Part shown: positions 1-33,414 of the stretch, piece after piece
How positions within the stretch are numbered: position 1 is the stretch's first letter
Layout of the letters: every line of letters begins with the position of its first letter
Virus record (IMG/VR): IMGVR_UViG_3300012931_000017
Coordinates: 1-33,414 of that record
Strand: one strand, 5' to 3'
Length of the DNA: 33,414 nt
Source: a virus
Made by a program: the position numbers and the translations under genes
Notes under the pieces: model-generated
What the model was told of the DNA's origin: nothing
Seen by the model: the letters and a program-made list of their open reading frames with translations, nothing else
Database searches by the model: none

Positions 1-1964
1 ACCGATACATTACCTGATCCGTTATCATAGATTGAGCCAGAACCAATTAAAGTTGTATTAGTAAATCTTGCTGAATAATTAGTGGTTCCACTCCCACCAA
101 TAGCACTACCAGCAATATCTTTTACATAATTATAAGCAGTTTCACCTAAATGATAATAAGGACTAACACCGTATAGATTACTTAATAAACTATGATCAGA
201 TATTCCAGAAGAGTTAAATTGAGTTGTAAAAGCTGAGTCTATCTTAGTCGCGGTTGTAGCATTATACTGAACTATTATTCGTCCTACTAATATACAATGT
301 CCTGTAATAACTACAGGTAAATTACTTGGAATTGAAGCATTAAGTGCATCAGAATATTGATTATAATCAGAGGTTGATAAGACATAATAAATACGTTTAA
401 CAGCTCCAACAGTTCTATACATGAATCTAACTAAATATTTATTATTAGTTGAAGTAACTAAGTCTGTACCATCATCATATTGTGTATTATTATATTGAGT
501 ATTTTGAGTATAGGTCCAAGTTCCACTTGAATGATAGAATAAAAACATAGAATCGGTTAAACTATTAAATGATGGTAAGGAATTAGCTGTAGTACCTACA
601 TAAACTATGCCACTAGTTAAAGTTACATAACGAGTAGCAGATTCTCCAATAGCTAAACCACCATCAATAGATAAACGATACGGAGTAGTTTGTAATATAG
701 AAGCGTCTATCTTATTACTTAATGATATCCCATTAGATCCAAAAGGAGTATATCTAATTATATTACCTAATCTCCAAATTGCAGCTATACCAACAATATT
801 ACTATGATTAATTAAAGACTTATCACTAATTAATACATAAGAAGCAATTCCTAAACTATATTGAATAGTTAGATATTGTTGAGACCAATCAGAAGGAGTA
901 ATAGTTGCTTCAGCTACAGAAAAACTAGAAATTTCATTTTCCCAATTTGCATTATCTCTTAGATTACAAGTTGTAGAAGCTACAGTAAATGAACCATCAC
1001 CATTATCAGTAATAGTTGGAAAAGTTATTACATTAATTCCAGTACTTAAATCGGTATGAGTTGCATAAATATTAGTATCAATACTTGCTGAACCTGTAGT
1101 TAATTTAACAAATCCACTAATACTTGTTGATAAACTCGATAAACTATTTAAAATAGAATTATATTGTTGAGCACCAACATCACTATAAGATAATCCATGA
1201 GCTGCAAAACCAAAAGTAGTTGCACTTAAAGCTTTTAAGAAATGACCAGTAGTTAAATCAGAAACTGTATGATAACTAGAAACTAATTCATGAGGAACTG
1301 TAGAAACTCCAGTTATTATTTCGTCTAAATTTCTATAATTTACAATTCCAGAATCTTCTTGAACTAAAACTCTTGTAGGATTTGATGTTAAATGAGACAA
1401 GCCATCAATTCTTAATCCACCAGCTATTTGTAAACCTTTACTTGTAATAACTGTACTTAAAGTTTCTCTAATAGATGAATTGCCTAATTTTCCTTCTAAA
1501 CCATTTGTAAATTTAACTATATAATCATTTAAACCTAACCCATGATTATGATCAACAACATCTACAGCGGTTATTGGCGTTGCTGAAGTTTCAGTACCAC
1601 CATAGGTAGTAGATGAAATATTTTGATTAACCCAAGATCCATTAATATAAACTAAAGCTTGACCATTTGTAGGATTTTCTATTTCAACATCGGTTAAATC
1701 GTTCAAACTAAGATTATCATTTAAATGATTTATTATTTCTTTAGAGAATGATTTAACTATAGCTTCTAATCCAGTTACTTTAGTTTTCTCATAAGTCATG
1801 ATTCGGCTATCATCAACATTTAGTGATAACTGATCAACTTGAGATAATTTTTCAGGAGAGAATGGATTAATAACTACTTTATTAGAAGATGAAATAGTTT
1901 GATTCATCGTAACTTTTTCTAACTCTAATAAAATATCAGATTCTAATAATGAGCTATTTAACAT
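1..1964 (-). CDS. Tail fiber-like structural protein, 5'-partial in window (C-terminus lies beyond position 1)
   Basis: Open minus-strand frame from ATG at 1962-1964 (MLNSSLLESDILLELEKV...) to the window edge, with AGGAAA ~10 nt upstream of the ATG. It is >650 aa and S/T/G/N-rich (...TITPSDWSQQYLTIQYSLGIASYVLISDK...GSGTTNYSARFTNTTLIGSGS...). It sits directly downstream of the gp5-like spike gene. It is absent from the ORF track only because it runs off the edge. Confidence 0.6.
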   Translation of the reverse strand, partial: MLNSSLLESDILLELEKVTMNQTISSSNKVVINPFSPEKLSQVDQLSLNVDDSRIMTYEKTKVTGLEAIVKSFSKEIINHLNDNLSLNDLTDVEIENPTNGQALVYINGSWVNQNISSTTYGGTETSATPITAVDVVDHNHGLGLNDYIVKFTNGLEGKLGNSSIRETLSTVITSKGLQIAGGLRIDGLSHLTSNPTRVLVQEDSGIVNYRNLDEIITGVSTVPHELVSSYHTVSDLTTGHFLKALSATTFGFAAHGLSYSDVGAQQYNSILNSLSSLSTSISGFVKLTTGSASIDTNIYATHTDLSTGINVITFPTITDNGDGSFTVASTTCNLRDNANWENEISSFSVAEATITPSDWSQQYLTIQYSLGIASYVLISDKSLINHSNIVGIAAIWRLGNIIRYTPFGSNGISLSNKIDASILQTTPYRLSIDGGLAIGESATRYVTLTSGIVYVGTTANSLPSFNSLTDSMFLFYHSSGTWTYTQNTQYNNTQYDDGTDLVTSTNNKYLVRFMYRTVGAVKRIYYVLSTSDYNQYSDALNASIPSNLPVVITGHCILVGRIIVQYNATTATKIDSAFTTQFNSSGISDHSLLSNLYGVSPYYHLGETAYNYVKDIAGSAIGGSGTTNYSARFTNTTLIGSGSIYDNGSGNVS

Positions 1965-1980
1965 TTATAAAATTTCCTAT

Positions 1981-2748
1981 TTAAACACAAATATTACCAG
2001 CATGAGGGAGACCAGTTAATGGATCAACAGGAATAGAATTCATTGGTCCAACATTAGAAGGAACTACAAGAGTTCCCGTTAATTCTAATGTAACAGAATG
2101 ATCTATTTTTACATAACCACCACTAATAGTAATATTTCCATCTTTTTCAATCTTTATTAAACCTATATTATTATTTTTTATTGTATGGTCGCCTATAACT
2201 GTATGAACTTCATCTTTTTTAACTAAAGTATTTTCATTACCATTAATTAATATATTAGTATCACCATCTTTATTTATCTCAAGATTATTTCCAGAATTAT
2301 GATGAAATATAAACTTTTTAGTTTTTCTATTCATTGTTAGATAATCACCTTCATCAGTTTGGAAGATAACCATAGTATCTGGATAATTTTCTAATCTCAA
2401 ACTAGATAATTTATTTTTATCATTAACTTTGGTTGAATAATGAGGAAAGTATATATCATCATTATCAAAGTAAACTTTTACTATTGTATTAATTGGAGGA
2501 ACTACAAATGAACCAATAGTAGAACCTATAAAATTAAAATCTGGTTGAGCCCACGGAAGATCATTATTTGGTATCTTATCAAATATACCAAAAACCTTAA
2601 TTTGACATCTTCCTTCTTTTAATGGATCAATATTATTAATAACTTTTCCTACATAACTTTTATTATAAATATCACCATCAAAACGATCAATAACCGCTTC
2701 AAGTAATGAGCTTATATCTTGAGAAAGGAAATCTCTCATGTTTTCCAT
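1981..2748 (-). CDS. Baseplate central spike protein (T4 gp5-like N-terminal OB-fold plus C-terminal beta-helix; no lysozyme domain)
   Basis: Track ORF is 1981..2832. The motif YVGKVINNIDPLKEGRCQIKVFGIFDKIPNNDLPWAQP matches the gp5/VgrG OB-fold signature (T4 gp5 FVGVVEDVMDPQKSGRVRVRV...LPWA). The C-terminal repetitive segment IGDHTIKNNNIGLIKIEKDGNITISGGYVKIDHSVTLELTG looks like a beta-helix. My preferred start is the ATG at ~2746-2748 (MENMRDF...). The extension to 2832 overlaps the upstream gene by 74 nt. Confidence 0.65.
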   Translation of the reverse strand: MENMRDFLSQDISSLLEAVIDRFDGDIYNKSYVGKVINNIDPLKEGRCQIKVFGIFDKIPNNDLPWAQPDFNFIGSTIGSFVVPPINTIVKVYFDNDDIYFPHYSTKVNDKNKLSSLRLENYPDTMVIFQTDEGDYLTMNRKTKKFIFHHNSGNNLEINKDGDTNILINGNENTLVKKDEVHTVIGDHTIKNNNIGLIKIEKDGNITISGGYVKIDHSVTLELTGTLVVPSNVGPMNSIPVDPLTGLPHAGNICV

Positions 2749-2758
2749 TATGCACCAT

Positions 2759-3910
2759 TTAAACTGATTGTGAACGGTTATATCCATTTCTATGAATGGA
2801 TATATGTTTTTTATAAAGAGATGAATTACCAAAGCTATGAGTTATACCAGAAACTATATATTCACCAGACTGAACTTCATCTAATTCAACTCTTTGTAAT
2901 GAATTAACCATTAATATTATAGTATCAAACAATTTAACTGAACTAAGTGAATTTATATTTAAAACTGTTGAAATATTAAAAATATTTTTAAAATATACAT
3001 TTTGTAGTTTAGCTTTAAAATAATCAGCAAATACATTATTTGTAAAAATAGGAAATGTTTTTACATTTACAGTTTTATCATAAGATTTGTTACTAATTTC
3101 TGTTAATGGATGATAATCTTTATTTACGTTAATTTCATTCAATTTTGAAGAATCATAATAATTACCAGTTAAACCATAACCATAATTCATATTAAAATGT
3201 TTAGTATAATTAGCTGTATTAAAAGAATTATACCAAATAGTTTTCTTATCTTCTTTATTAGTAAACTCATATTTATTAAAATTCTCAAGACTATAAATAG
3301 CTTTGGTTGAATAAGATTTATTAATTTCTGATTTTAATGATGTATAATTTAAGTTTCCGAAAATATCAGCATAGCAAAATATAACATCATCACTACAATA
3401 AGCTCGTTCAACTATATGTTTAATAAACTGAAAATTTGACTGATTAATTTGTAACCAAGTCATCATATCAGAAGTATTAAGATTAAGATTTTTATTAAAT
3501 TTTAATTTTAATTCATTACTTATCTGACTAATAACTTGAGAAGAATTCATATTTTTAAAACTTCTAGTTTTAGTAAAATATAAATCATTAGTTTGTAAAA
3601 TTCCGGATAATGTTATTAAAGAAGCTTTATTTCCTTCTATATTATCAATAACTTTATTAATTATTTCAAACTGTGCATGAAATATATGTTCATCTTCAGG
3701 ATTTACACCCACTTCAATATCTAAAATCGAGTTATCAAGAATAGGAAAGTTTTCAGTTAAATAACCATCATCTAATATAGAAATTTCAATTCTTGGTAAT
3801 ATATCAAAAATCCATTCTCTTATTACACAATTAGAAATATTCTTTGGAATTAGTGGGTGATCATCAATAGAAAGTTTACAATAATAGTTCTGAAAAAATG
3901 AATAATCCAC
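2759..3910 (-). CDS. Baseplate hub protein (gp27-like by size and position); GTG start
   Basis: 383-aa ORF immediately upstream of the gp5-like gene. Its size matches T4 gp27 (391 aa). The start codon is GTG (plus-strand 'cac' at 3908-3910), overlapping the upstream TAG as TAGTG. No diagnostic motif was recognised. The call rests on synteny and length. Confidence 0.4.
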   Translation of the reverse strand: MDYSFFQNYYCKLSIDDHPLIPKNISNCVIREWIFDILPRIEISILDDGYLTENFPILDNSILDIEVGVNPEDEHIFHAQFEIINKVIDNIEGNKASLITLSGILQTNDLYFTKTRSFKNMNSSQVISQISNELKLKFNKNLNLNTSDMMTWLQINQSNFQFIKHIVERAYCSDDVIFCYADIFGNLNYTSLKSEINKSYSTKAIYSLENFNKYEFTNKEDKKTIWYNSFNTANYTKHFNMNYGYGLTGNYYDSSKLNEINVNKDYHPLTEISNKSYDKTVNVKTFPIFTNNVFADYFKAKLQNVYFKNIFNISTVLNINSLSSVKLFDTIILMVNSLQRVELDEVQSGEYIVSGITHSFGNSSLYKKHISIHRNGYNRSQSV

Positions 3911-4245
3911 TAGTTATTTTCATCCTTTTGTTTCTTCCTTACATTAGTATAAAAATTCTCTATATCTGCTAATGCAGGAACTACTATTACTTCACCCGGA
4001 ATTATATCATTCCAAACATCAATGATATTATTAATTTTACAAACTATCCACCAATAATCAGGTTTTCCATATAATTTAAAACTTAATAAATCAGGATTTT
4101 GTATATCATCATCTTCTAATTGATAATATTGAACTTCATTATTATATACAAAACACGTGTCAAAATAATCATTAATAAAGTGATAATATAGTTTATCATC
4201 AATTACTTCGGTTTTTACAAAATTAGTTCTATTCCATCTTGACAT
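3910..4245 (-). CDS. Small baseplate protein with a LysM-like segment (gp53/P2 gpX-like?)
   Basis: 111 aa. The segment DLLSFKLYGKPDYWWIVCKINNIIDVWNDIIPGEVIVVP fits the LysM-like pattern (hydrophobic-YG...W.I...N.I.d...I.pGq.l.iP). AGGAAC sits 8 nt upstream of the ATG. Confidence 0.35.
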   Translation of the reverse strand: MSRWNRTNFVKTEVIDDKLYYHFINDYFDTCFVYNNEVQYYQLEDDDIQNPDLLSFKLYGKPDYWWIVCKINNIIDVWNDIIPGEVIVVPALADIENFYTNVRKKQKDENN

Positions 4246-4258
4246 TTGTTAGTTCCTG

Positions 4259-5191
4259 TTAAGCAAAAACACCAGAAGATTGAGAAATATTAACTCTTTT
4301 ACCGTTACTTATTATATCAACCCGTTTTATTCCATCATATTCATCTAATAGCATTTTATATCTTGAACCAATACTTAATTCTAAATCAACATGAATTGGA
4401 CCAGATTCACTACAATGTTCTGAAAAATTTGCAGTTACAGACTCTAAAATCATATTTCTTAGTGTTAACCAATTACCTAATATTACTGATATAGTTGGTG
4501 GAGATTCAGTTAATCTTATCTCTTCATTAGATATTTCATTATAAACATTAGTGGCAAAATTTTTAAGAGTTTTTGGTAATTGATCTCTTATACCTTGAGC
4601 TACCATTTGCAATCCATTTTCTATACCTAGTTCAGCTTTACCTATTAAATTTCTTGCTGTTTCATTAGGAATTTTAGCAATAACGGCTTTAATAGCATTA
4701 TCTAATTGAACACTCATTTTTGATCTTGGTAATGTTAAAGCCATTAATGTTATTGCCGCTTTAATAGCTTTACCTGAGTTATCATCATCTAAAACTCTAA
4801 TACTTATAGGTAAACTCAAATGACTTCCACCAGTATAAAATTTCTTCGATTGTAAATCAGTTTCTGCTGTTGCTCCACCAACCGTAACAAGAGCTTTAGC
4901 TGCTTGCATTATCTGAGTTTTTAAAGGTGTATTACTTACCAAACAACCTAAAGCTGTATCAGCTTCCAATTCTCTCCAAACTGCATTAGTATTAAGAGAA
5001 ACTCCACCTTTCATAACTCCAACTACTCTTAATGGAACTTCAGCTTCATTATCAGTTAAAGCACGTCTTTCTTCCGACTCAATAACTACCTTATATGCAC
5101 CAGTACTTGCGTATAAGGTTTTATTAAATGAATCAGTATTAAATACACTTAAATTATCTAAGTCTTTAATATATGAGGAAATGGAAACCAT
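4259..5191 (-). CDS. Baseplate or tail-tube associated structural protein (gp48-position)
   Basis: 310-aa ORF directly downstream of the tape-measure gene, as gp48 is in T4. No motif was recognised. Confidence 0.3.
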   Translation of the reverse strand: MVSISSYIKDLDNLSVFNTDSFNKTLYASTGAYKVVIESEERRALTDNEAEVPLRVVGVMKGGVSLNTNAVWRELEADTALGCLVSNTPLKTQIMQAAKALVTVGGATAETDLQSKKFYTGGSHLSLPISIRVLDDDNSGKAIKAAITLMALTLPRSKMSVQLDNAIKAVIAKIPNETARNLIGKAELGIENGLQMVAQGIRDQLPKTLKNFATNVYNEISNEEIRLTESPPTISVILGNWLTLRNMILESVTANFSEHCSESGPIHVDLELSIGSRYKMLLDEYDGIKRVDIISNGKRVNISQSSGVFA

Positions 5192-5197
5192 TTATTG

Positions 5198-6934
5198 TTA
5201 TTTCCTTGCATTAACTGCTATAACTTGTTTTTGAGTAATTTTTGTAGCATTAATCTTATTTTCTTCTGCTATTTTGACTGCTAATTTATTTATAGATTCA
5301 TCAGCTAGTTTTAATACATAATTAGTTTCTTTACCAAATAACTCATTATCTATTCTCCTAACATTATTATTATTAGCTGAGTCTTGTCTAACTCTAGCCA
5401 TTTCTATATGCTGAGGATCTTTTGAAGAGTATGGTTGAACAAAACCATATTTATCTAATAAACCTAATTCTTTTAGTTTTTGAACTTGTGCTGACTGAAT
5501 ATCTATAGCATTTCCATAATTATGTTTAGAATATCCTGGTCTTGCTACAGGTGTACTTCCCATTAATCCTGCTTGTTTATCAGACCATAACTTCATTTGA
5601 TCTGAAAAGCTTCTATAACCAGAATTAACTTGCAAAACATCTTTAGTTAATAAATTATATTCTTTAGCCATTTTTTCAAATTTTCCGAACATTTCTTTAT
5701 TTAAATTAGCTGTATCAACACCATAATCAGCTCTTTTATAATAATTCTCATTTTTTGCTGGTGTATTAACTTCAGCATTATTATTAACTAATAAATCTTT
5801 AGGTTTTAATTTACCTACTAAATTTTTAACCGATTTACCAATTTTTGAATCTTTTAACGATTCTATCCAATCTACACTTGAGTATAAAGCATCACCTAAA
5901 CCAGGAACAAACATATTAGCCATTTTTGCTAATTCTTTTGTTGATTCAAATGGATCTTTAACAAAATTATTAATAGCGTCGAATGATTTAACTATTTGTC
6001 CAATAACTGGAATATCTCTAATATCAGTATGTTTTTTCTTTGGATCTGCTTCCTCTGCTTTCCCAAAGACTCCAAAATCTTTCATTAGCAATAAACCATC
6101 AATAACTAAAGATATTGCAGTTCCAACACCTGGAAACATTGATGCAACACCGGAAGCTATTTCTCCTATACCACCAATTATATCACCGTTTTTAAATCTT
6201 TCAATTCCAAAGAAAATACCCAAAATAGTTCCAACACCCGGAATCTTTTTTAATAAAGTTTTAGCAGTATTTCCTAACATTTTTCCGCCAGCTTTTTCAG
6301 CTACTTTACCAAAAATATTAGTTATAGGTTTTAAAAATTCTCCAATATTTTTAGCGAATTTAAAAACCGAATTTAATGGCTTTGTTATAGAATTTAAGAT
6401 TGGTTCTATAAAACTTTTAGCACTTTTGAGTAATGGTTCAGTAATCTTTGAAAATAATTTAGAAAAAGGTTCTGTTATTTTAGGTAATAGTTTAGCCATA
6501 CCTTTAATAGCAGAGGGAATTCCTTTTTGAATTAACCAATCAAAAGGTTTTAGGAGAATTTTAGTTGGAAGATATTTGGTTAATGCTTTAATAATATCAA
6601 ATAAAAATTCTTTCTTTCCTGTTAAAAGATAACCAGCTAATCCACCTAATCCTAATAAAGCTCCTAAACCTGTTAATAATCCGGATTTTTTCTTTTTAGT
6701 TTCATTAAGAGTTTCGATATCAACTTTTAAAATTTTATCAAGAATTAAATTTTCTTTCTTCATTAACTCTTCAGTTAAATCTTTCTTAACTAAAAATCTA
6801 TCTTTCTTTTGAGTATTATCTTCAGTATTTTTACTCGATTTTATAAAACTAGATATATTAGTTATAAATTTATTCTGAGTTTCTATTAACTTATCTATTT
6901 GTTGATCTCTTTTCTTATCTTCTGCTGAAGTCAT
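5198..6934 (-). CDS. Tail tape-measure / hub protein (gp29-like) with C-terminal peptidase M15 (VanY/LAS-type) peptidoglycan hydrolase domain
   Basis: 578 aa. It has Gly-rich hydrophobic segments (LLTGLGALLGLGGLAGYLLTG; IPGVGTILGIFFGIERF...GGIGEIASGVASMFPGVGTAISLVIDGLLLM) typical of tape-measure proteins. The C-terminus carries the M15 zinc-peptidase motifs NSGYRSFSDQ, YSKHNYGNAIDI (SxHxxGxAxD) and DPQHIEMA. AAGAGG precedes the ATG. Confidence 0.7.
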   Translation of the reverse strand: MTSAEDKKRDQQIDKLIETQNKFITNISSFIKSSKNTEDNTQKKDRFLVKKDLTEELMKKENLILDKILKVDIETLNETKKKKSGLLTGLGALLGLGGLAGYLLTGKKEFLFDIIKALTKYLPTKILLKPFDWLIQKGIPSAIKGMAKLLPKITEPFSKLFSKITEPLLKSAKSFIEPILNSITKPLNSVFKFAKNIGEFLKPITNIFGKVAEKAGGKMLGNTAKTLLKKIPGVGTILGIFFGIERFKNGDIIGGIGEIASGVASMFPGVGTAISLVIDGLLLMKDFGVFGKAEEADPKKKHTDIRDIPVIGQIVKSFDAINNFVKDPFESTKELAKMANMFVPGLGDALYSSVDWIESLKDSKIGKSVKNLVGKLKPKDLLVNNNAEVNTPAKNENYYKRADYGVDTANLNKEMFGKFEKMAKEYNLLTKDVLQVNSGYRSFSDQMKLWSDKQAGLMGSTPVARPGYSKHNYGNAIDIQSAQVQKLKELGLLDKYGFVQPYSSKDPQHIEMARVRQDSANNNNVRRIDNELFGKETNYVLKLADESINKLAVKIAEENKINATKITQKQVIAVNARK

Positions 6935-7099: not shown

Positions 7100-7858
7100 T
7101 CAGTTAGACTTATATTTGGGAAGAAAGAATTCTTCTCGAAACGTAACCCCTTTTAAGGTAGTTCCTCCACATTTAGGACATTCAACTAATAATTCAGACT
7201 TAATTCCAAAATTCCATTCTTCCATTTTACTCAATATATAACAATAGTTTTCCGGATTCTGATTAATTAAATATTCATATTTTTCAATTAGTTCAAGTTC
7301 CTTTCCATTTATCTTATCTATTGATACAGCCATTCCTGCAATTTCATCATCCAAATCTTTGTAAATAGGCAAGTAAGCTGTTTTAAAAGATTTCAATCTC
7401 TTCTCATCTATAATTTTTGGAAAATGAAAAACTATTTCATCTTCATTTTTAGTCTTAAATGTAAGGTTGGCTAACGAAAAACTATCCTTCAAATATTGAA
7501 CTTGTAAATTTGATAATTTAAAATCAAATGAAACTTCTTCTTTGCAATTTGAACAAACAAAATCTTGAGAATATCCTGATTCTCTATAAGTATTAGCTCT
7601 TAACCAAAAGATTAAAAATAGTTTGTCAGATGATAAAATATCTTCAATCTTGATTCCACGTATACATTTCTTTAAAATATCTAAAATTATAGAGTCTGCA
7701 TTTTCTTCAGTCATTGAAGATAGTCTTTTAACTTCTAATAATTTTAATGGTCTTCCTTCAATTTTAACATTACCATATAGTTTACATTTACTTGGAAAAT
7801 CAGTTATCTCATAATAAATTGGTTCAGTATCACTCATTTTTCTTAAACTCCATTTCAA
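7100..7858 (-). CDS. Hypothetical protein with CxxC...CxxC zinc-ribbon (possible baseplate hub/assembly factor)
   Basis: 252 aa. It has CSNC...CPKCGG cysteine pairs. It sits between the tube-like genes and the tape-measure gene. No family was recognised. Confidence 0.3.
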   Translation of the reverse strand: MKWSLRKMSDTEPIYYEITDFPSKCKLYGNVKIEGRPLKLLEVKRLSSMTEENADSIILDILKKCIRGIKIEDILSSDKLFLIFWLRANTYRESGYSQDFVCSNCKEEVSFDFKLSNLQVQYLKDSFSLANLTFKTKNEDEIVFHFPKIIDEKRLKSFKTAYLPIYKDLDDEIAGMAVSIDKINGKELELIEKYEYLINQNPENYCYILSKMEEWNFGIKSELLVECPKCGGTTLKGVTFREEFFLPKYKSN

Positions 7859-8922
7859 ACAGGTTTATTCAATACATTCTTCCTAAATTGTTTTTTATCT
7901 ACAGGTTTCTTTTCCACTGGTTTAGCCTGTTTAACTTTATTCAAATTAGTTTTATTAGGATTCTTCATTACTGGCTTCTTAACTACAGGCTTATTTTCTA
8001 TTGGTTTAGCAACGGGTTTCTTAATTTCTGGTTTAACTATTTTCTTTTTTTCCTCTTCCTGTTGCTTCTTTATTATAGGTCTTCTATCAATAGTTTGATA
8101 TTTAGGAAGTTTATGAACTACAGGTTCTGCTTTTTTAGTTGGTGTATTATGCTTTAAAGCATTCTTTTTTGCTTGTTCAGCTCTATCTTGATATAATTTA
8201 GTCTTCGCTGTTGGTTGATATTTTCTTTCAAATTCAGCCGCTCCAGCTTTAGTTCTTTGTTCTAAATCATTATGGGTTTTACCTTTCTTCATTTTCTCTT
8301 CTCTAGCTTTCCTTAATTTTTCCATAGAAGCATGACGTTCTTTAGCCATCTCATGACGCTCTTGAGCTCTTTGTTCTACACTAGCAGCTTTTTTAGCTCT
8401 TTCTGCAGCTTTCTCTTCTCTAGCTTTCCTTAATTTTTCCATAGAAGCATGACGTTCTTTAGCCATCTCATGACGCTCTTGAGCTCTTTGTTCTACACTA
8501 GCAGCTTTTTTAGCTCTTTCTGCAGCTTTCTGTGAATCTGATTTTTCTTTTTCATCACCACGCCAAGTTTTTATGGCTGTTTTTTGTTTTCTTTCTCTTT
8601 CTTTGGATAATTTAGACTTAAAACGTTCATCTTCTGAAGAACTTCTTTTTTGTTTTAATTCTGCTTGTTTAGCTTCACGAGCCTTTTCTGAAGCAGTTCT
8701 TCTTTGATCTCGCTCTAATTTAGCTTGATCTCTTTTTTTATCCATTTCTGTTTGACGAGCTTTTCTATCACTTTCTTTTGAAGCTCTAAGTTTATCCATC
8801 TGCTTTTGACGTTTAAGTCTATCTTTTCTATTTGAACTATACCATTTTCTATTTTGGTCTCTTTTTGTAGCTCTCATAAAATTAGATAGAATTCCAGCCT
8901 TTTCGATTATTATATCACCCAT
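7855..8922 (-). CDS. Highly charged K/E/R-rich repeat protein carrying an internal 39-aa tandem duplication and a C-terminal KPV-type low-complexity tail
   Basis: 355 aa. SMEKLRKAREEKAAERAKKAASVEQRAQERHEMAKERHA occurs twice in a row. The C-terminus is ...KPVAKPIENKPVVKKPVMKNPNK.... Function is unknown. It could be a tail-assembly chaperone or tape-measure-associated protein. Confidence 0.5.
   Translation of the reverse strand: MGDIIIEKAGILSNFMRATKRDQNRKWYSSNRKDRLKRQKQMDKLRASKESDRKARQTEMDKKRDQAKLERDQRRTASEKAREAKQAELKQKRSSSEDERFKSKLSKERERKQKTAIKTWRGDEKEKSDSQKAAERAKKAASVEQRAQERHEMAKERHASMEKLRKAREEKAAERAKKAASVEQRAQERHEMAKERHASMEKLRKAREEKMKKGKTHNDLEQRTKAGAAEFERKYQPTAKTKLYQDRAEQAKKNALKHNTPTKKAEPVVHKLPKYQTIDRRPIIKKQQEEEKKKIVKPEIKKPVAKPIENKPVVKKPVMKNPNKTNLNKVKQAKPVEKKPVDKKQFRKNVLNKPV
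8293..8526. repeat. Perfect 2 x 117-bp direct tandem duplication inside CDS 7855..8922 (in frame, 39 codons per unit)
   Basis: The block ...ttctcttctctagctttccttaatttttccatagaagcatgacgttctttagccatctcatgacgctcttgagctctttgttctacactagcagcttttttagctctttctgcagcttt occurs twice back to back (~8293-8409 and ~8410-8526). No mismatch was visible. Confidence 0.85.
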
Positions 8923-10953: not shown

Positions 10954-12720
10954 TTAAACTTCCGTTGTAGTAACACCAGTACGAGTCACAATAGTTTTTA
11001 ATGAAATATATTCGATGGTTTTTGTTGGTTGAACAAAAACATTTACATCAAGTTCATTAGCATCAATTACTTGTTGAGTATTATTTTCTTCATCACACTG
11101 AACTGTATAAGCATATAAACCTTCTTGACTCTTAATTGGAGCTAAGAATGAATCTAAATTACTCCAAATTCTAAGTCTAGTCTTTGCTGTATTATTTACA
11201 TCCAATACATAACTCATAAGTGATCTAGCCATAGACTTCCGGATATACACTAATAACATACGTACATTTATTCTATCTAATGCTGAAGCTTTTCTTTGAC
11301 AAGTTTTTTGTCCCCAAAGTACATGACCAATTCCTCTAAAATATCGGGAAGTATTAATATTTCTATCATACAACTGTCCAATCTCAGGTTCAGACCATAC
11401 TTTATTTACTCCAACAATTGGTAATATTCCTCTAGTCATACCTGCGGGAGATTGTCCAATAGTGGCATCAGTCTTTGCAATTACCGCTCCTGCTTGAATT
11501 GATTTTGGTAAATAAACATATTTTGAATTATATTTATCATAAACTTTATCCCAACCAGCATAAGCAAATACATAAGAAGGATCAGTGTATCCACCCTGTT
11601 CGGCAGTCCAAATTTGTTGAACTGTAGTATCGGTAACTGTACCAGATTGAGTAACCATATAACAATCTTTTCTATAACCAACCACATTTTGACAAACTAA
11701 TTGTTTAACATTCATACTATAATCAGGAACTAAAACTATACTTATATCATATTCATCTTTGTTTTTAAAGTAATCCCAAACCGAATAATATGTTCCAATT
11801 CCAGATTTAGCAACCTGATTACCACCAGATAATCTAATTAAGGAGGCATTTTTAACACCAAAATAATCACCAGTACTTAAAAATTGATTAGGATTTGTTG
11901 ATTGAGTTATAGTAGTTGCATTATCATTTACATCTACATAAATTAAACTAGATTTTCCATTAACCACATCTTTGATAAACAATTGATCATTATTTCCATC
12001 AAGTTGTGATCTCAAAGTTCCATAGAATGTTTCTTGAGGATATAAAGATAACGCACTAGTAGAATTACTAGTTTGAGTAAATGATTCCCAAGTTTCAGTT
12101 GTTTCTTTCTTATATACATTGATTTTAAATACACTATTAGCAATAGTCATAGCACTAGTCGGAATTGCACTTGTTGCATATCCTACAGGCAAATCATCAT
12201 AAGAATAGAACCAATCGGATGCAGAAGTTAAAGTCTCAATTGTTACAGCTATATCATTTCCCCAATCACCAGGAGAAACAGCACCAATAATCATTTGAGC
12301 ACCTGACATTGGAGCATTATCAATAGCATAAATTGAATCTATCTGATCAGCTACAGGACCAGCACTAGCTCCTATATTTGCAACTGAATAACCTAAAGCA
12401 TTAGTTCCAATGCCTGTTTTTGCAAAGTAATCTTCTGTTGCAGTAGCGGCACGAATTACGTATAATGAGCTTGATTCTTGTAAAAAAGCCAAAGATGCAT
12501 AAGCACCATATCCATAAACTAATGAAGTTCCAGATATTACTGGTTCTCCAAATTGTTCTATAAAATCTTGATCACTAGTAACTAATACTGGTCTATTAAC
12601 AGGCCCTTTTGGAGAAGTTATTACTATAGCTCCAGTATTAGTTCCAGCTCCAATAGTTAATTCGGATTTATCAATTTCTTGTTCATTAACATTTGGAGTA
12701 TTTGTTTTTCTTCCAGCCAT
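10954..12720 (-). CDS. Tail sheath protein (gp18-like)
   Basis: 588 aa. The C-terminal block ...YAYTVQCDEENNTQQVIDANELDVNVFVQPTKTIEYISLKTIV matches the conserved sheath C-terminus (T4 gp18 ...VVCDESNNTPDVIDRNEL...). AGGAGGG precedes the ATG. A TATAAATA motif lies at ~12774-12781 on the minus strand, 54 nt upstream. Confidence 0.85.
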   Translation of the reverse strand: MAGRKTNTPNVNEQEIDKSELTIGAGTNTGAIVITSPKGPVNRPVLVTSDQDFIEQFGEPVISGTSLVYGYGAYASLAFLQESSSLYVIRAATATEDYFAKTGIGTNALGYSVANIGASAGPVADQIDSIYAIDNAPMSGAQMIIGAVSPGDWGNDIAVTIETLTSASDWFYSYDDLPVGYATSAIPTSAMTIANSVFKINVYKKETTETWESFTQTSNSTSALSLYPQETFYGTLRSQLDGNNDQLFIKDVVNGKSSLIYVDVNDNATTITQSTNPNQFLSTGDYFGVKNASLIRLSGGNQVAKSGIGTYYSVWDYFKNKDEYDISIVLVPDYSMNVKQLVCQNVVGYRKDCYMVTQSGTVTDTTVQQIWTAEQGGYTDPSYVFAYAGWDKVYDKYNSKYVYLPKSIQAGAVIAKTDATIGQSPAGMTRGILPIVGVNKVWSEPEIGQLYDRNINTSRYFRGIGHVLWGQKTCQRKASALDRINVRMLLVYIRKSMARSLMSYVLDVNNTAKTRLRIWSNLDSFLAPIKSQEGLYAYTVQCDEENNTQQVIDANELDVNVFVQPTKTIEYISLKTIVTRTGVTTTEV

Positions 12721-12810: not shown

Positions 12811-13908
12811 CTAGTCGTCATCAAAGTTAGGATCATCAGCATCTTGATCAGTAAAAACTATAGGAGCATCTGAGTCCCATCTATCATCTATCTTAAACTT
12901 ATCTTCTATTGACTTAATTCCTACATTCTTTCCATCAAATAGTTCAGTTGTTACAAAATATAAAGCCCATAATAAGCTAGTCACAGAATCATCATGTGCA
13001 TATTCTGGAGATTGATATATATTAGGCTTAATTTCTTCATATAAACTAAGTTCATATATAGTTTGTCTATCAACTAACTTTAACCAATGACTTTCTAAAT
13101 ACCTCTTTAATAATAAATTGGCATTTAGTTTAGTCTTCTTTGTAGCCCTTATACCTAGTCCCTTAGCATCACAATTAATTATAGCATCACATTCATGATC
13201 ATTCCAAATTATATCAGCAACTAGTGACCCTACACCATTATTCTCAATCATCATATTAGCATTATTATAATATTCCGATATAGATACACTAATTTGAGCA
13301 AATTTACTTATTTCTAAAGTATTAGTTCTAAAAACGGCAACCTGTTCAATATCAAGTTCTGAATTTATCTTCAAAATCTGAATAACAGCATAATCATGTC
13401 CAATTCCTTCAGATGAATCTATTCCCATTATATAAAAAGCATTAGGAATCGGATGTTCAAATATTTGAAGTATACCATTCCACTTAGTGTCTATAGGATC
13501 TATAGTTTCTAGTCTCTCCAATACTTCACTATCTATTAATGTATTTGTTGAACCAATAAATTTACAGTTATGATTCAATATATTATTAGCAAAATATCTA
13601 TGAGTGTCTTTTACCTCTAATACATCAAAAACTAATTCCTTTTTTCCAGTTTCTATATTTATTATAGTTTTATAACAGTTCTGGGATTCTAATACTTCTC
13701 CAATATTAAGTTCACAAGCTTCAACTTCTAAATCATCTATTACAAATACATGATGATAAGTTACAGATATGGTTGAATTATCTTCTAAAGTAAATGTTAG
13801 TAAGTCCTGCTCTCCAAGACAAGCTAATCCATCAAAGTCCTTATAGCCTTCATCAGTTTCAATCTGTAGTCCTTCAAATTTTCTGATTTCAATCATATTT
13901 TTATCCAA
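12811..13908 (-). CDS. terL: Terminase large subunit fragment 3: IntC half of split intein 'b' (aa 1-114) fused to the C-terminal nuclease domain extein
   Basis: The N-terminal 114 aa end ...VFDVLEVKDTHRYFANNILNHN|C (intein blocks F/G, terminal HN plus Cys+1). They are paralogous to the IntC half in ORF 16430..17857. The extein ...CKFIGSTNTLIDSEVL...FYIMGIDSSEGIGHDYAVIQIL...YAHDDSVTSLLWALYF is colinear with T4 gp17 ([13 protein letters not shown]...[21 protein letters not shown]...GYHDDLVMSLVIFGW). The track start is TTG. The ATG at M5 (MIEIRKF..., 13894-13896) is more likely. Confidence 0.85.
   Translation of the reverse strand: MDKNMIEIRKFEGLQIETDEGYKDFDGLACLGEQDLLTFTLEDNSTISVTYHHVFVIDDLEVEACELNIGEVLESQNCYKTIINIETGKKELVFDVLEVKDTHRYFANNILNHNCKFIGSTNTLIDSEVLERLETIDPIDTKWNGILQIFEHPIPNAFYIMGIDSSEGIGHDYAVIQILKINSELDIEQVAVFRTNTLEISKFAQISVSISEYYNNANMMIENNGVGSLVADIIWNDHECDAIINCDAKGLGIRATKKTKLNANLLLKRYLESHWLKLVDRQTIYELSLYEEIKPNIYQSPEYAHDDSVTSLLWALYFVTTELFDGKNVGIKSIEDKFKIDDRWDSDAPIVFTDQDADDPNFDDD
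13567..13908 (-). mobile_element. Split intein b, C-terminal half (IntC-b, ~110-114 aa)
   Basis: Residues 1-114 of ORF 12811..13908. The TxxH-like block is STISVTYHHVFVIDD. Block F/G is VFDVLEVKDTHRYFANNILNHN, followed by Cys+1. Confidence 0.8.
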
Positions 13909-14070
13909 ATAAAATCATAAACTTCTCTATCATCAACTGTAGTATGAGCTATTTCATCCTTAGTTTTAATTTATAAAGGTCTATCTTGTCCAAAATATAA
14001 TAAACACTTAAATGCCTTTGTTTAATAAATAACCAAATAAATCCTAACAACCATTCGATAGTAAATTTCA

Positions 14071-14433
14071 TTAGTCTATTTTTTCCTTTTCTATAGTTCC
14101 ATCTTTCTTAACCTCTATATTTAAAAACTCATGATTCTTCTTTAATCTATTTTGTATTTCTTCTTTAGCATCATCAGGAAGTTCCTTCTCATATTTAGCC
14201 TGACAATCATTTACTCCACGTCCACATATCTTGGCTATCTGCTTATCTAACCATTTTACAAAAAATTTCTTCGTAATAGGGTTCCAATACCATGTAGTCT
14301 TCCTATTGTTAGCCCAGTGTATAAATCCCCTATAAATAATAGGAATTATTATCACTAACATCCCATAAAAAGCTTTCGCCCATTCTGAATTAACATACAA
14401 ACCAAAAAAATTAACTATTTCCGTTGAGTCCAT
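14071..14433 (-). CDS. Small membrane protein (one predicted TM helix), unknown function
   Basis: 120 aa. The hydrophobic stretch is AKAFYGMLVIIIPIIY. GAGGA sits 6 nt upstream of the ATG. It lies between the two halves of split intein b. Confidence 0.5.
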   Translation of the reverse strand: MDSTEIVNFFGLYVNSEWAKAFYGMLVIIIPIIYRGFIHWANNRKTTWYWNPITKKFFVKWLDKQIAKICGRGVNDCQAKYEKELPDDAKEEIQNRLKKNHEFLNIEVKKDGTIEKEKID

Positions 14434-14440
14434 ATAATCC

Positions 14441-15007
14441 TCACTTAAATTTAATTATCTCCCGTGAACCATCTTTTGAACTAAATTCGCAAGTCCTTAC
14501 TTCCATCTCCTTACCTTCAAAATATGATGAATCAAATGAAAGGTTTTCTTTTATTCCCTTCTTTATATATGCTATCGTACAATGAGCTATATACTTTGGA
14601 AAATGATTCTCAAAATCTATCCTACGCTTCAATAATGAGTTCAATTCCCGTAACCTTTCAGATTCAATCTCTATCTTCATTACATCACAGTTATCATTCT
14701 CAAAAAAAGAAATCTTCCCGAATCTAACTTTGAAAGGTTCTATTTTTGAAATTATTGGCCTAATCTCCTTGGCTTCTGATGATATTATTCCATATAATAT
14801 AGTGCAGTGAGGATCTAAATCCCTTCCACAATCATCATTTTCTCCCATATATAAGTAGTCATATATTATATGGGAATATCCAAAATCTATTATCTCTTTA
14901 CTTAGTTTATCATCAATGTTAAATTGCAATGATGAATAATTATGACTAATCTCAGTTCTATCCATGATAAATCCTTTCCAAAATCGTTGTTTGAAAATAT
15001 TTATCAT
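14441..15007 (-). CDS. 2H phosphoesterase superfamily protein (LigT / cyclic-nucleotide phosphodiesterase-like; two HxT motifs)
   Basis: Two H-x-T-x motifs are spaced ~75 aa apart: DPHCTILYG and IAHCTIAYI. This is the hallmark of the 2H family. The likely true start is M15 (MDRTEI..., ~14965), which has AAAGGA 9 nt upstream. Confidence 0.6.
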   Translation of the reverse strand: MINIFKQRFWKGFIMDRTEISHNYSSLQFNIDDKLSKEIIDFGYSHIIYDYLYMGENDDCGRDLDPHCTILYGIISSEAKEIRPIISKIEPFKVRFGKISFFENDNCDVMKIEIESERLRELNSLLKRRIDFENHFPKYIAHCTIAYIKKGIKENLSFDSSYFEGKEMEVRTCEFSSKDGSREIIKFK

Positions 15008-15017
15008 TTTAAAACTT

Positions 15018-15218
15018 TTAGTTCTCTACATTATTACATCTATTGCAAATTCCGATAATCTCTTTCTTTGGTTGTTTACATCTACACGTTTCCGTTGAAC
15101 CGCATCTCTTACATTTTAACTTTAAATGATGGTTGGGTTCTGGATACTCCTTCCTTATTTCATCAAAACTCTTATTATTTTCTTCATTATATATTAAATA
15201 ATCTCTAAATTTCATCAT
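15018..15218 (-). CDS. Small zinc-ribbon protein (CxxC-x5-CxC-x10-CxxC)
   Basis: 66 aa: ...CKRCGSTETCRCKQPKKEIIGICNRCNN. GAGAGG sits 5 nt upstream. It overlaps the 3' end of the HNH gene by 14 nt. Confidence 0.45.
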   Translation of the reverse strand: MMKFRDYLIYNEENNKSFDEIRKEYPEPNHHLKLKCKRCGSTETCRCKQPKKEIIGICNRCNNVEN

Positions 15219-16320
15219 GCAACCTCTCTTTTAATAATTTTATAAAATCCTCAGAATTAAGTTTACCTTTTGCACTATTAGTTTGCCTTCCGCAAATAAC
15301 TAAATTATCTATTCCACCAATTATTTTAAAATCTACATTATTTTTAAATCCATAACTTATACTTATTTTGTGATCTATAGTTGGTTGAAATAAATTGTTA
15401 CTTAAATTTATATCAGGATTTATTTTTCTAAATTCTTCATTTAATATCAATTTATCTCTGGTATAATAGTCTAAACCATCCCAGTTCTCAAATAATATTT
15501 TAATATGTTTTCTAGTTTCATTCCAAACTGTAGTATAATAATAATGAATTTCATCTAAATTATCATAAACATACCAATTTTTATTATTAATATTAGTTTC
15601 TCTAACCTTTTCTCTCACCCAGTCTAGTTGCATAACATTATCAACCGAATACCTATTTCTACACGTTATCCTTATAGATTCTGCTATCTTCTCACAAACC
15701 CAATCTAATTTCATATTATGGTCAACGCCATATCTATCAATCAATGTATTAGTTCTATGGTCATTAACTAATCTAATATTCTCTTCAGTCCAGAAAGCCT
15801 TTCTCTTTTCATTTATCTCTTCCTTATTTTCTTCTAAAGCTTTTTCCCTCGCATCCTTAACATGAGGTAATTGCAAAGTTTCCTCTATTCCATACTTTTT
15901 AAAATTAGCTTCCCTTATCCTCTTCTTTCCTATCTCACAACCAGAAAAACTCTTAGTTCCATATTTTAATAAATTAGTTTTTTGAGTCTTCTCTATTACA
16001 GCTCTTTTACTTTCTTCATTTGAAAATAGTTTCTTCTTTATATCACTTAATTTCTTTCTTGATTCCTCTGTTGCCTTTGTACATTTACAACTACAATAAG
16101 GTCTATAACCAACTAAAAATCCTACAAATTTAGTTTCTTTTCCACAAGCTAAACATTTTCCTTCATTCTCTTTTTTATAAAATTTATCATAATATTGCTT
16201 CTCAGTTATATCACCATGATAAACTTTTAAATGACATCTGTAAAAATCACACCACCTATAAAATGTAGTCTCTTTACCACAAATTGAACAAACAAACTTA
16301 ACATTTCTGTCAAATTTCAT
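15205..16320 (-). CDS. Freestanding HNH homing endonuclease with N-terminal Cys-rich DNA-binding module and repeated DNA-binding motifs
   Basis: The C-terminal HNH motif is PTIDHKISISYGFKNN...DNLVICGRQTNSAKGKL. The N-terminal VCSICGKETTFYRWCDFYRCH...EGKCLACGKETKF module is homologous to the N-terminus of ORF 24255..24770. An internal repeat is KLDWVCEKIAESI / QLDWVREKVRETN. AAGGAG precedes the ATG. Confidence 0.75.
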   Translation of the reverse strand: MKFDRNVKFVCSICGKETTFYRWCDFYRCHLKVYHGDITEKQYYDKFYKKENEGKCLACGKETKFVGFLVGYRPYCSCKCTKATEESRKKLSDIKKKLFSNEESKRAVIEKTQKTNLLKYGTKSFSGCEIGKKRIREANFKKYGIEETLQLPHVKDAREKALEENKEEINEKRKAFWTEENIRLVNDHRTNTLIDRYGVDHNMKLDWVCEKIAESIRITCRNRYSVDNVMQLDWVREKVRETNINNKNWYVYDNLDEIHYYYTTVWNETRKHIKILFENWDGLDYYTRDKLILNEEFRKINPDINLSNNLFQPTIDHKISISYGFKNNVDFKIIGGIDNLVICGRQTNSAKGKLNSEDFIKLLKERLHDEI

Positions 16321-16429
16321 ACCTTTACTCCTTTTTTATTTTTATAAATATTGTTATAGAGGTTCTGGAAATTTACTCGCCAGATAGTTTAGATTTACGC
16401 TAATAAATCTAAACTTACCTCACTTTTTA

Positions 16430-32768: not shown

Positions 32769-33414
32769 TTAAAAAATTCCTCTAAAAATTCCTCTAATAA
32801 AATTAGTAGTTCTATGTTTTATTGAACTATCAGCCCGTACAAAGAAATTAACTGTATTACTAGTGTCAGATGGTATTGTATCTGATGTAGCTGTTATAAA
32901 AATAGTATTTAATCCAATATTTATCTTATTTGATAAAATATTAAAACTTCCTGTTTGATTACTATCAACCTGTATATTATTTTTAAATAATTTGTAATAT
33001 AAAGTTCCTGTTCCAGTTGCTGTTACTGAAAATGTTGACGTTTGTCCTAACTTTATTGTATCAGATTCTGGTTGTACCGTTATTGTTGCTGGAGTTTTTG
33101 ATGTCGATCCTCCTCCAAGTGTAGAAAGATCCAAAACTTCTGGAACCCATGTTGTATCACTTGGATTAACAGCTCCAATATAAGAAGGTAGTGTAGTAGA
33201 TAAATACGGATGAGTTGTATAACCACCATCAGCTATTGTTGTATCTCCTGAAACTGAAAAGGTTCCTTTAGAAATATATTTTGAAGAATATAAATCGCCT
33301 GTTGCTACCGTGAAATGCTTTGCACTTCTACCATAAGCAGTATTGAATTCCGTAATAGTATACAGATCAGTAGTTTTACCAAACAATATAGGTTTTGGTG
33401 TATTGGTAGTATTT
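32769..33414 (-). CDS. Ig-like (BIG2-type) domain structural protein, probably 3'-partial at the window edge (N-terminus may lie beyond 33414)
   Basis: The track start at 33386 is TTG. The frame stays open to the window end. ...TITVQPESDTIKLGQTSTFSVTATGTGTLYYKLFKNN... is typical of phage Ig-like decoration or fiber domains. Confidence 0.45.
   Translation of the reverse strand, partial: NTTNTPKPILFGKTTDLYTITEFNTAYGRSAKHFTVATGDLYSSKYISKGTFSVSGDTTIADGGYTTHPYLSTTLPSYIGAVNPSDTTWVPEVLDLSTLGGGSTSKTPATITVQPESDTIKLGQTSTFSVTATGTGTLYYKLFKNNIQVDSNQTGSFNILSNKINIGLNTIFITATSDTIPSDTSNTVNFFVRADSSIKHRTTNFIRGIFRGIF

Follow-up and report, generated by a model that had tools for sequence, protein, structure and literature searches.

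The DNA analyzed here is a stretch of 33,414 nucleotides (positions 1 to 33,414 of IMG/VR virus record IMGVR_UViG_3300012931_000017), referred to below as the window. It encodes a 578-amino-acid (aa) protein with an embedded M15 peptidase domain that is probably the tail tape measure, i.e., the equivalent of T4 gp29, and a gp5-like central spike that carries no enzyme domain. The parts of the 578-aa protein would be, in order, a charged coiled coil, Gly-rich hydrophobic segments, a helical linker, the M15 cassette, and a C-terminal tail. An earlier sequence-only reading of this DNA had proposed that the lytic domain is relocated from the spike to the end of the tape measure and that an endopeptidase delivered through the tail tube breaches the peptidoglycan. 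Its observation is confirmed, and its interpretation is partly supported. The open reading frames (ORFs) on which it was built are all present on the minus strand, and the main features are as follows.

5198-6934, minus strand: 578-aa tape-measure-like protein with embedded M15 peptidase, in the T4 gp29 slot (ORF, synteny, AlphaFold2 [AF2] model)
5390-5737, minus strand: M15 (VanY-like, LAS fold) zinc-peptidase domain, residues ~400 to 515 (Pfam, phmmer, AF2, Foldseek, motif conservation)
5597-5620, minus strand: motif GYRSFSDQ, residues 439 to 446
5501-5530, minus strand: motif SKHNYGNAID, residues 469 to 478
5408-5419, minus strand: motif DPQH, residues 506 to 509
1981-2787, minus strand: central spike of the gp5/gpV/VgrG type, OB fold plus beta-strands (gene call, 268 aa; maximal ORF, 1981-2832)

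The 578-aa protein matched the Pfam family VanY (PF02557) over residues 410 to 488 with an E value of 2.4e-11 and 44 bits, against a cut-off of 25. Matches in the Protein Data Bank (PDB) found by phmmer were VanXYc, LdcB, and Ply500, and in the alignment with 4MUR, the segments SGYRS..Q and PGYSKHNYGNAID pair with the catalytic motifs. In the AF2 model, confidence is high for this domain alone (block-mean predicted local distance difference test score [pLDDT] of ~87 to 97 over residues ~400 to 515). There the model has the alpha/beta LAS fold, and Foldseek gave a probability of 1.0 for matches to LdcB (4mph), Ply500 (2vo9), VanY (5hnm), and LysB4 (6akv). The zinc-ligand pattern H-x6-D plus a distal His, the acidic residue three positions before that His, and the conserved Arg are all present and align to VanXYc. 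H471, D478, and H509 are the predicted zinc ligands and D506 the predicted acid/base residue; R441 and Q446 are also conserved. Indeed, conservation is 90% or higher at R441, Q446, H471, D478, and H509 among 15 full-length homologs (alignment A1), and SxHxxGxAxD together with [ED]xxH is kept in 12 of 12 M15-bearing proteins from IMG/VR and the Prochlorococcus phage P-HM2. Position 506 is Asp where most homologs have Glu; Asp is also found in one further family member (P0011) and in P-HM2, and T5-type M15 lysins have Asp at the equivalent position. A chance match of the motifs is ruled out by the Pfam score, the conservation, the AF2 model, and Foldseek. The complete M15/LAS signature reported by the sequence-only reading was thus borne out by the domain search, and its motifs proved to be conserved in homologs, where a lack of conservation had been named as grounds for rejecting the idea.

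The closest sequence relatives of the domain are carboxypeptidases (VanXY, VanY, and LdcB), and the closest structural relatives are phage endopeptidases. The tightest superpositions were those with the phage L-Ala-D-Glu endopeptidases Ply500 (TM score, 0.57; root mean square deviation, 3.0) and LysB4 (TM score, 0.57), while LdcB superposed less well (TM score, ~0.44; root mean square deviation, 6.6). Scores for the NCBIfam equivalogs VanXY, VanY, LdcB, and MepK were all far under their cut-offs. As identity to Ply500, LysB4, VanY, and LdcB is 18 to 23% and the NCBIfam cut-offs were widely missed, specificity is not transferable from these enzymes. The term endopeptidase is therefore not established for this domain.

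We assign the 578-aa protein as a tape measure because of its position, length, and predicted architecture, together with weak matches to tape-measure families in PHROGs (phrog_4372, E value of 3e-5; phrog_4200, E value of 2e-4). Its position is that of gp29 in a T4-type hub module: the order gp26-like protein, 578-aa protein, gp48/PmgG-like protein, gp53-like protein, hub, and spike is kept in 16 related IMG/VR loci and in P-HM2. In length, the protein is close to T4 gp29 (590 aa). Among the tape-measure families in PHROGs, one further family (phrog_16823) already has an alignment to the M15 region. The regions outside the peptidase domain are as follows.

6680-6934, minus strand: N-terminal charged helical region, residues 1 to 85 (23.5% K+R, 18.8% D+E; model helices at 4 to 35 and 53 to 80)
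6617-6679, minus strand: glycine-zipper hydrophobic segment LLTGLGALLGLGGLAGYLLTG, residues 86 to 106 (Kyte-Doolittle peak of 1.76, 33% Gly, 0 charged residues)
6077-6283, minus strand: family-defining Gly-rich core, residues 218 to 286, KKIPxVGxxxGxxFGxxRxxxGDxxGxxxExxSGxxSxxPGxGTAxSxxxD
5201-5317, minus strand: conserved C-terminal tail, residues 540 to 578, L..S/TI..LA..I....K.N...........R (alignment A1)

Outside the M15 domain, the AF2 model is all-helical at low confidence (helical residues 4 to 374 by DSSP), as would be expected for a tape measure. By analogy with the coiled-coil domain of the T4 tape measure, residues 1 to 85 probably form the proximal coiled coil. Hydrophobicity peaks at residues 84 to 106 and 252 to 292. 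The glycine-zipper segment at residues 86 to 106, in which G97, G98, G101, and G106 are conserved (alignment A1), is a candidate membrane-inserting helix. The Gly-rich core contains 16 invariant columns across 44 proteins (alignment A3) and also occurs in proteins of cyanophages and Campylobacter phages, the latter annotated "endolysin" or "membrane protein." Residues ~516 to 578 follow the M15 domain, which is an internal cassette and not terminal; the earlier statement that the protein ends in the peptidase overlooked this conserved tail of ~60 aa. The stretch from 540 to 578 is conserved irrespective of the enzyme that precedes it and includes a helix at residues 545 to 561 (pLDDT, ~77 to 79). 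It is probably an anchor in the hub or distal tube, as judged from the C termini of the T4 and A-1(L) tape measures. The composite protein is not an assembly fusion, since an identical 578-aa ORF is encoded on three independent contigs, the longest of which (97.8 kb) extends 517 bp past the start of the window before it ends.

The operon holds one further gene that was considered as a rival tape measure or as a chaperone:

7855-8922, minus strand: K/E/R-rich protein (ORF, 355 aa; gene call, 316 aa) with two near-identical ~38-aa repeats (AAERAKKAASVEQRAQERHEMAKERHASMEKLRKAREEK), between the tube-like genes and the gp26-like gene

If this or another gene encoded the true tape measure, the 578-aa protein would be an ejected inner-tail or hub effector. 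The K/E-rich protein is predicted to be extended and lies in the same operon, and the 578-aa protein shows no significant homology to gp29. Against this, neither a hydrophobic segment nor a match in Pfam or PHROGs was found in the K/E-rich protein, whose 316 to 355 aa would measure only ~50 nm. Furthermore, P-HM2 and Synechococcus phage S-CREM2 place a long enzyme-bearing protein directly after gp26/gp51, and the length of the 578-aa protein is approximately that of T4 gp29. We regard this alternative as highly improbable.

The spike provides the second part of the finding. Its sole Pfam domain is Phage_base_V (OB; E value of 3e-5), and phrog_430 matches it in the OB region only (E value of 1.3e-15). 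Alignment A5 of its homologs suggests that translation probably starts at the Met at 2748, giving 255 aa. With only 255 to 268 aa, the protein has no room for a GH24 domain, and neither Pfam nor PHROGs detected a central GH24 lysozyme domain in it. The AF2 model consists of an OB barrel followed by beta-strands, being all-beta after the OB fold, and contains no alpha/beta enzyme domain. Foldseek matched the model to spikes of extracellular contractile injection systems and VgrG, to the P1 baseplate spike (9vzk_q), to R2 pyocin (4s37) and P2 gpV (3qr8), and to 7aef_q, 7b5h, and 3pqi; for this monomer model, a simple OB plus beta-helix spike type fits. With T4 gp5, only the OB domain aligned (27% identity over 89 columns; Foldseek). 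Likewise, 58 of 60 spike homologs (204 to 298 aa) are without a lysozyme domain, their recorded domains being PF04717 or none. Spikes that consist of an OB fold and a beta-helix and carry no enzyme are in fact the common form, as in P2, Mu, P1, and the pyocins. The absence of an enzyme from the spike had thus been correctly recognized from the sequence. To call the lytic domain relocated is less apt, as the word implies that the T4 arrangement is ancestral, while enzyme-free spikes are common and M15 differs from lysozyme.

Comparison across the family showed that the enzyme has been exchanged at its site in the tape measure. Pfam found VanY in 8 of the 44 members (12 by motif search) and Phage_lysozyme in 2, with nothing in the rest. 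An M15-bearing member (locus L010) and a member bearing a GH24 lysozyme (L016) share 63% identity over ~350 N-terminal residues and have near-identical C-terminal tails, whereas their central ~200 residues are unrelated; the enzyme of L016 resembles the lysozyme region of gp5-type PHROGs. In another member (P0015), an SLT domain occupies the M15 site between conserved flanks, and a fourth type, PF18013, occurs in P0030. The sequence comparison is clear evidence that the enzyme is a swappable cassette at a fixed tape-measure site.

The reverse arrangement was found in locus L088, which encodes a 298-aa gp5-like protein with Phage_lysozyme2 and, next to gp26, a 584-aa protein in the tape-measure slot without a lytic domain. 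T4 gp5 carries a lysozyme (PDB 1K28), and homologs of T4 gp29 carry PF25671 only. Although the sample is small, these domain assignments suggest that tape-measure-borne and spike-borne enzymes are alternative solutions. At more distant loci that encode enzyme-free tape-measure-like proteins, 10 downstream proteins gave no structural or lytic-domain Pfam match, the only matches being thymidylate synthase Thy1 and a weak domain of unknown function. Because they offer no usable domain calls, these loci say nothing on complementarity. No other peptidoglycan hydrolase was detected in the 31 other window ORFs or in the 10 kb past the right end, and to that extent there is no lysozyme-bearing spike elsewhere, which the sequence-only reading had named as a second way of overturning its idea.

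The M15 domain of a genuine tape measure might still not breach the wall: it could be a stem-trimming carboxypeptidase, with a role in marking or remodeling the entry site or in blocking superinfection, or it could be a structural or plug domain with retained catalytic residues. Such a role would agree with its best sequence matches, which are DD-/LD-carboxypeptidases and dipeptidases (VanXYc, LdcB, and VanY), and with the many relatives that have no lytic domain, so that a tape measure may not need to cut the wall. However, the structural best fit is to the phage L-Ala-D-Glu endopeptidases Ply500 and LysB4 and not to LdcB, the cassette is swapped for the glycan-strand cutters GH24 and SLT at the same site, and its distribution is complementary with that of the lysozyme-bearing spike. 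We consider a purely trimming or structural role unlikely. The swaps with glycan-strand cutters argue, from sequence comparison, that the selected function of the tape-measure-borne cassette is opening the sacculus.

Several points weigh against the 578-aa protein being a tape measure that opens the wall. No match to PF25671 (T4 gp29) was found in it by Pfam, and the best hhalign comparison with T4 gp29 gave an E value of 0.0017 and a probability of 16%, which is not significant. The same 47 to 50 columns, residues 233 to 279 with gp29 residues 282 to 333, were aligned repeatedly in single-versus-profile and profile-profile comparisons; homology was nonsignificant in both, and we do not claim membership in the gp29 family. 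In several of the PHROG matches, the aligned part is the M15 or Gly-rich portion of a family labeled "endolysin" or "peptidase." The nearest sequence relatives of the domain are the carboxypeptidases, which trim stems and do not open the sacculus. The search for a second hydrolase was confined to the window and the 10 kb past its right end. Finally, a folded domain of ~13 kDa in three to six copies would be tight in the tube lumen, and it may travel unfolded.

A different role is implied by the annotation of many homologs. Proteins of Campylobacter phage CPt10, P-HM2, and S-CREM2, as well as PHROGs 13118, 34252, and 38472, are labeled "endolysin" or "peptidase," the M15 module is like those of stand-alone phage lysins (e.g., 31% identity to that of Vibrio phage Va1), and no other lysin was seen in the window. 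The 578-aa protein could accordingly be an endolysin or a membrane-tethered lysis enzyme that acts from within at the end of infection. In contrast to what is expected of an endolysin, namely, a soluble or SAR enzyme encoded by a nonstructural gene in a lysis cassette with a holin, its gene occupies a fixed slot inside the baseplate-hub operon, and no holin or spanin context was seen. Moreover, 400 of its 578 residues form tape-measure-like helix and glycine zipper, and the tail behind the enzyme is conserved. About 30 of the 44 family members have no detectable lytic domain; since these are the majority, lysis is not the family function. The S-CREM2 analogues, in addition, are abundant virion proteins. 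A role in lysis from within is therefore quite improbable, and the tape-measure assignment is retained.

S-CREM2 (OR473000; locus L086, 4484-13555) encodes, in the slot after gp26, two long proteins that are annotated "endolysin":

gp208: 1565 aa, GH19 at residues 1341 to 1440
gp209: 1456 aa, Phage_lysozyme (GH24) at residues 550 to 661

Each was detected in virions with >70 peptides, and the tail of this phage is 418 nm long. The gp5 protein encoded after them has no lysozyme. As gp208 matched the family profile with an E value of only 0.0025 and a probability of 12%, it is used here as a syntenic analogue and not as a homolog. At 1.5 Å per residue, the summed length of gp208 and gp209 is ~450 nm, against the 418-nm tail; that the two proteins measure the tail together is speculation. 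In CPt10 (locus L002, 6987-10505), a 1172-aa RefSeq "endolysin" with the Gly-rich core and without a Pfam lytic domain is encoded just upstream of the "baseplate tail-tube junction protein," and it is probably a misannotated tape measure. One paper suggested that these "endolysin"-labeled proteins are packaged in the capsid.

Published work on other tape measures suggests how the enzyme might be delivered. A recent study of T4 (bioRxiv 10.64898/2026.03.06.709160) locates the N-terminal coiled coil of gp29 beside the DNA and its C-terminal loop at the distal tube or hub; upon contraction, the C-terminal half becomes exposed before the rest, followed by engagement of the membrane by the hydrophobic segment. 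In A-1(L), a tripod at the distal end is made up of the final ~20 residues of the tape measure. If the 578-aa protein is placed in the virion tube with the same orientation, contraction of the sheath would drive the enzyme-free OB plus beta-helix spike through the outer membrane, after which the spike would be shed and the C-terminal part of the tape measure would exit the tube first. The M15 domain, just before the anchor tail at residues 540 to 578, would then enter the periplasm ahead of any other globular element. There it would fold, or would already be folded, and would cut peptidoglycan locally at a bond in the peptide stems, while the hydrophobic segments would help to form an inner-membrane conduit for DNA. 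The proposed delivery through the tail tube fits the T4 gp29 data, by analogy.

The closest precedent is phage P1, a myovirus with a gp5-like needle without lysozyme and with a hydrolase (SLT) near the C terminus of its long helical tape measure, Sit. Its authors propose that Sit supplies the activity missing from gp5 (PMC9024508), so the idea put forward by the sequence-only reading had already been stated for Sit and gp5. Further likenesses are the PmgG-like 310-aa neighbor in the window and the match of the spike model to P1 chain 9vzk_q. Unlike the window, P1 has a lytic transglycosylase instead of an M15 peptidase, a tape measure of 1140 aa, and head and packaging genes that are not T4-like.

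In P-HM2, gp26 and gp51 are followed in the same slot by the 610-aa PHM2_022, whose Gly-rich core is 40% identical over 136 aa and precedes a VanY domain that carries the motifs SxHxxGxAxD and DxxH; homologs of PHM2_022 occur in T4-like cyanophages. The next genes encode a hypothetical protein, then a "tail protein," then a gp5 of 928 aa that contains Gp5_OB and lacks lysozyme. However, the alignment with the 578-aa protein is limited to the core and the M15 domain: PHM2_022 has different N- and C-terminal regions and is without the conserved tail motif at the C terminus. The GenBank annotation of PHM2_022 is "peptidase M15B and M15C," not tape measure. We found no explicit statement in the literature on cyanophage tape measures with VanY or a peptidase.

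T4 shares the operon logic (gp26, gp51, gp27, gp29, gp48, gp54), the OB fold of the spike, and, in gp29, the order of coiled coil, hydrophobic segment, helical region, and C-terminal anchor, but its enzyme, a GH24 lysozyme, is in gp5, and gp29 has none. Lytic domains in tape measures are known from T5 Pb2, mycobacteriophage TM4, and phiIPLA35 (reviewed in PMC6116005). These resemble the window protein, by description, in having an ejected tape measure that enters the envelope and contains a peptidoglycan-cleaving domain, and they differ in having noncontractile tails and other enzyme families. Ply500, LysB4, T5-type M15 endolysins, VanY, LdcB, and VanXY have the LAS fold in common with the M15 domain, as well as its zinc-binding and catalytic motifs, but all of these are free-standing enzymes. 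In A-1(L), the peptidase is in the hub, not in the tape measure.

Tape-measure-borne lysins and enzyme-free spikes are thus already documented, and the general picture is unchanged. Modest novelty lies in the cassette exchange at one fixed site and in recognizing that "endolysin" and "peptidase" genes of distant T4 relatives are probably tape measures. A more general proposition, whose chances of being right or wrong we see as evenly balanced, is that the proteins with a Gly-rich core encoded after gp26/gp51 are the long-unrecognized gp29 equivalents of non-Tevenvirinae phages of the T4 superfamily, namely, this clade, the T4-like cyanophages, and the Campylobacter Eucampyvirinae, where they are labeled "endolysin," "peptidase," or "membrane protein." They would have a fixed plug-in site upstream of the C-terminal anchor at which M15, GH24, SLT, PF18013, and possibly GH19 are swapped; tape-measure and spike enzymes would be mutually exclusive, and the type of cassette would mark host wall chemistry for uncultured phages. 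If true, this would correct a widespread annotation error, by which virion tape measures of marine T4-like and Campylobacter phages are labeled endolysins. It would also offer a natural example of enzyme-cassette exchange, with 63% identical flanks around unrelated enzymes, that is useful for engineering virion-associated lysins, and it would lend comparative support to the view of myovirus tape measures as ejected effectors and not only rulers.

The source phage is uncultured and belongs, as a distant member, to the T4 superfamily; its GC content is low (~28% across the window), and the genes discussed here are all on the minus strand. Among the window ORFs, Pfam identified a structural block of Portal_T4, Gp23, T4-gp15, T4 prohead protease, scaffold, and a T4-type terminase. 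The portal is only ~31% identical to cyanophage portals, and a megablast search of 12 kb against 50,697 phage records gave 0 matches, i.e., no close cultured relative. The sheath gene is followed by two tube-like genes, a 215-aa ORF, the K/E-rich repeat protein, the gp26-like protein, the 578-aa protein, the PmgG/gp48-like and gp53-like proteins, a 383-aa protein at the gp27 position, the gp5-like spike, and a fibre-like ORF. The neighbors in this order are as follows.

10954-12720, minus strand: sheath, with two tube-like genes downstream
7100-7837, minus strand: gp26-like baseplate hub protein, directly upstream of the tape-measure gene (Pfam T4_baseplate, PF12322, E value of 5.7e-13; gene call, 245 aa)
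4259-5191, minus strand: 310-aa gp48/PmgG-like baseplate-to-tube junction protein (phrog_1114, PmgG-like, E value of 1.3e-11; position kept in relatives)
3910-4245, minus strand: 111-aa gp53-like small baseplate protein (phrog_7145 and phrog_1269, baseplate wedge subunit, E values of ~1e-10 to 1e-11)
2759-3910, minus strand: 383-aa protein at the gp27 (hub) position, by position only (slot directly upstream of the spike, conserved in 16 loci)

The 310-aa protein had no PDB sequence match; P1 PmgG has been reassigned as gp48-like (PMC9024508). For the 111-aa protein, the match to Pfam Phage_gp53 was weak (E value of 0.0025). For the 383-aa protein, phmmer and profile searches of the PDB and hhalign comparisons with T4 gp27 and with the P-HM2 tail protein gave no significant match. 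Directly after the spike, a fibre-like ORF of at least 827 aa (1-1964, minus strand) runs off the contig end. In relatives (loci L006 to L053), this slot is hypervariable, with products of ~116 to 170 aa at the lower end and of 2230 aa at the upper; such variation would be expected of a host-range determinant that is attached close to the spike.

Elsewhere in the window, the large terminase gene (12811-19341, minus strand) is apparently "fractured" into three ORFs, in what appears to be a combination of two split inteins with very short N-fragments and one contiguous mini-intein; Pfam detected Intein_splicing in 2 window ORFs. A 129-aa ORF ends in ...PRQAGK/CINYWGK. A 475-aa ORF starts with an IntC-like region of ~115 aa (...GILSHN/TTVSS), includes the mini-intein (YSIN/CLTENN...LLVSN/CLFLDEF), and ends in ...QEYA/CSEKTSRININ. 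A 365-aa ORF has an IntC-like start (...NILNHN/CKFIGS) followed by Terminase_6C. Between the pieces lie homing-endonuclease-like ORFs (314 aa; DUF7487, 371 aa), a 2'-5' RNA ligase, and a 120-aa ORF. The arrangement resembles the metagenomic "fractured genes" and the AceL-TerL atypical split inteins.

Between a terminase fragment and an HNH gene, a 269-aa hydrolase of the GDSL/SGNH type (19346-20155, minus strand; Lipase_GDSL, E value of 4e-5) could be an esterase acting on cell-envelope polymers. At the right edge, a 205-aa ORF (32769-33414, minus strand) is the C-terminal part of a 1244-aa protein whose gene continues past the window (locus L087, 6246-9980); with its TIG and Pel9A-like beta-helix domains, the 1244-aa protein is probably a tail spike or depolymerase.

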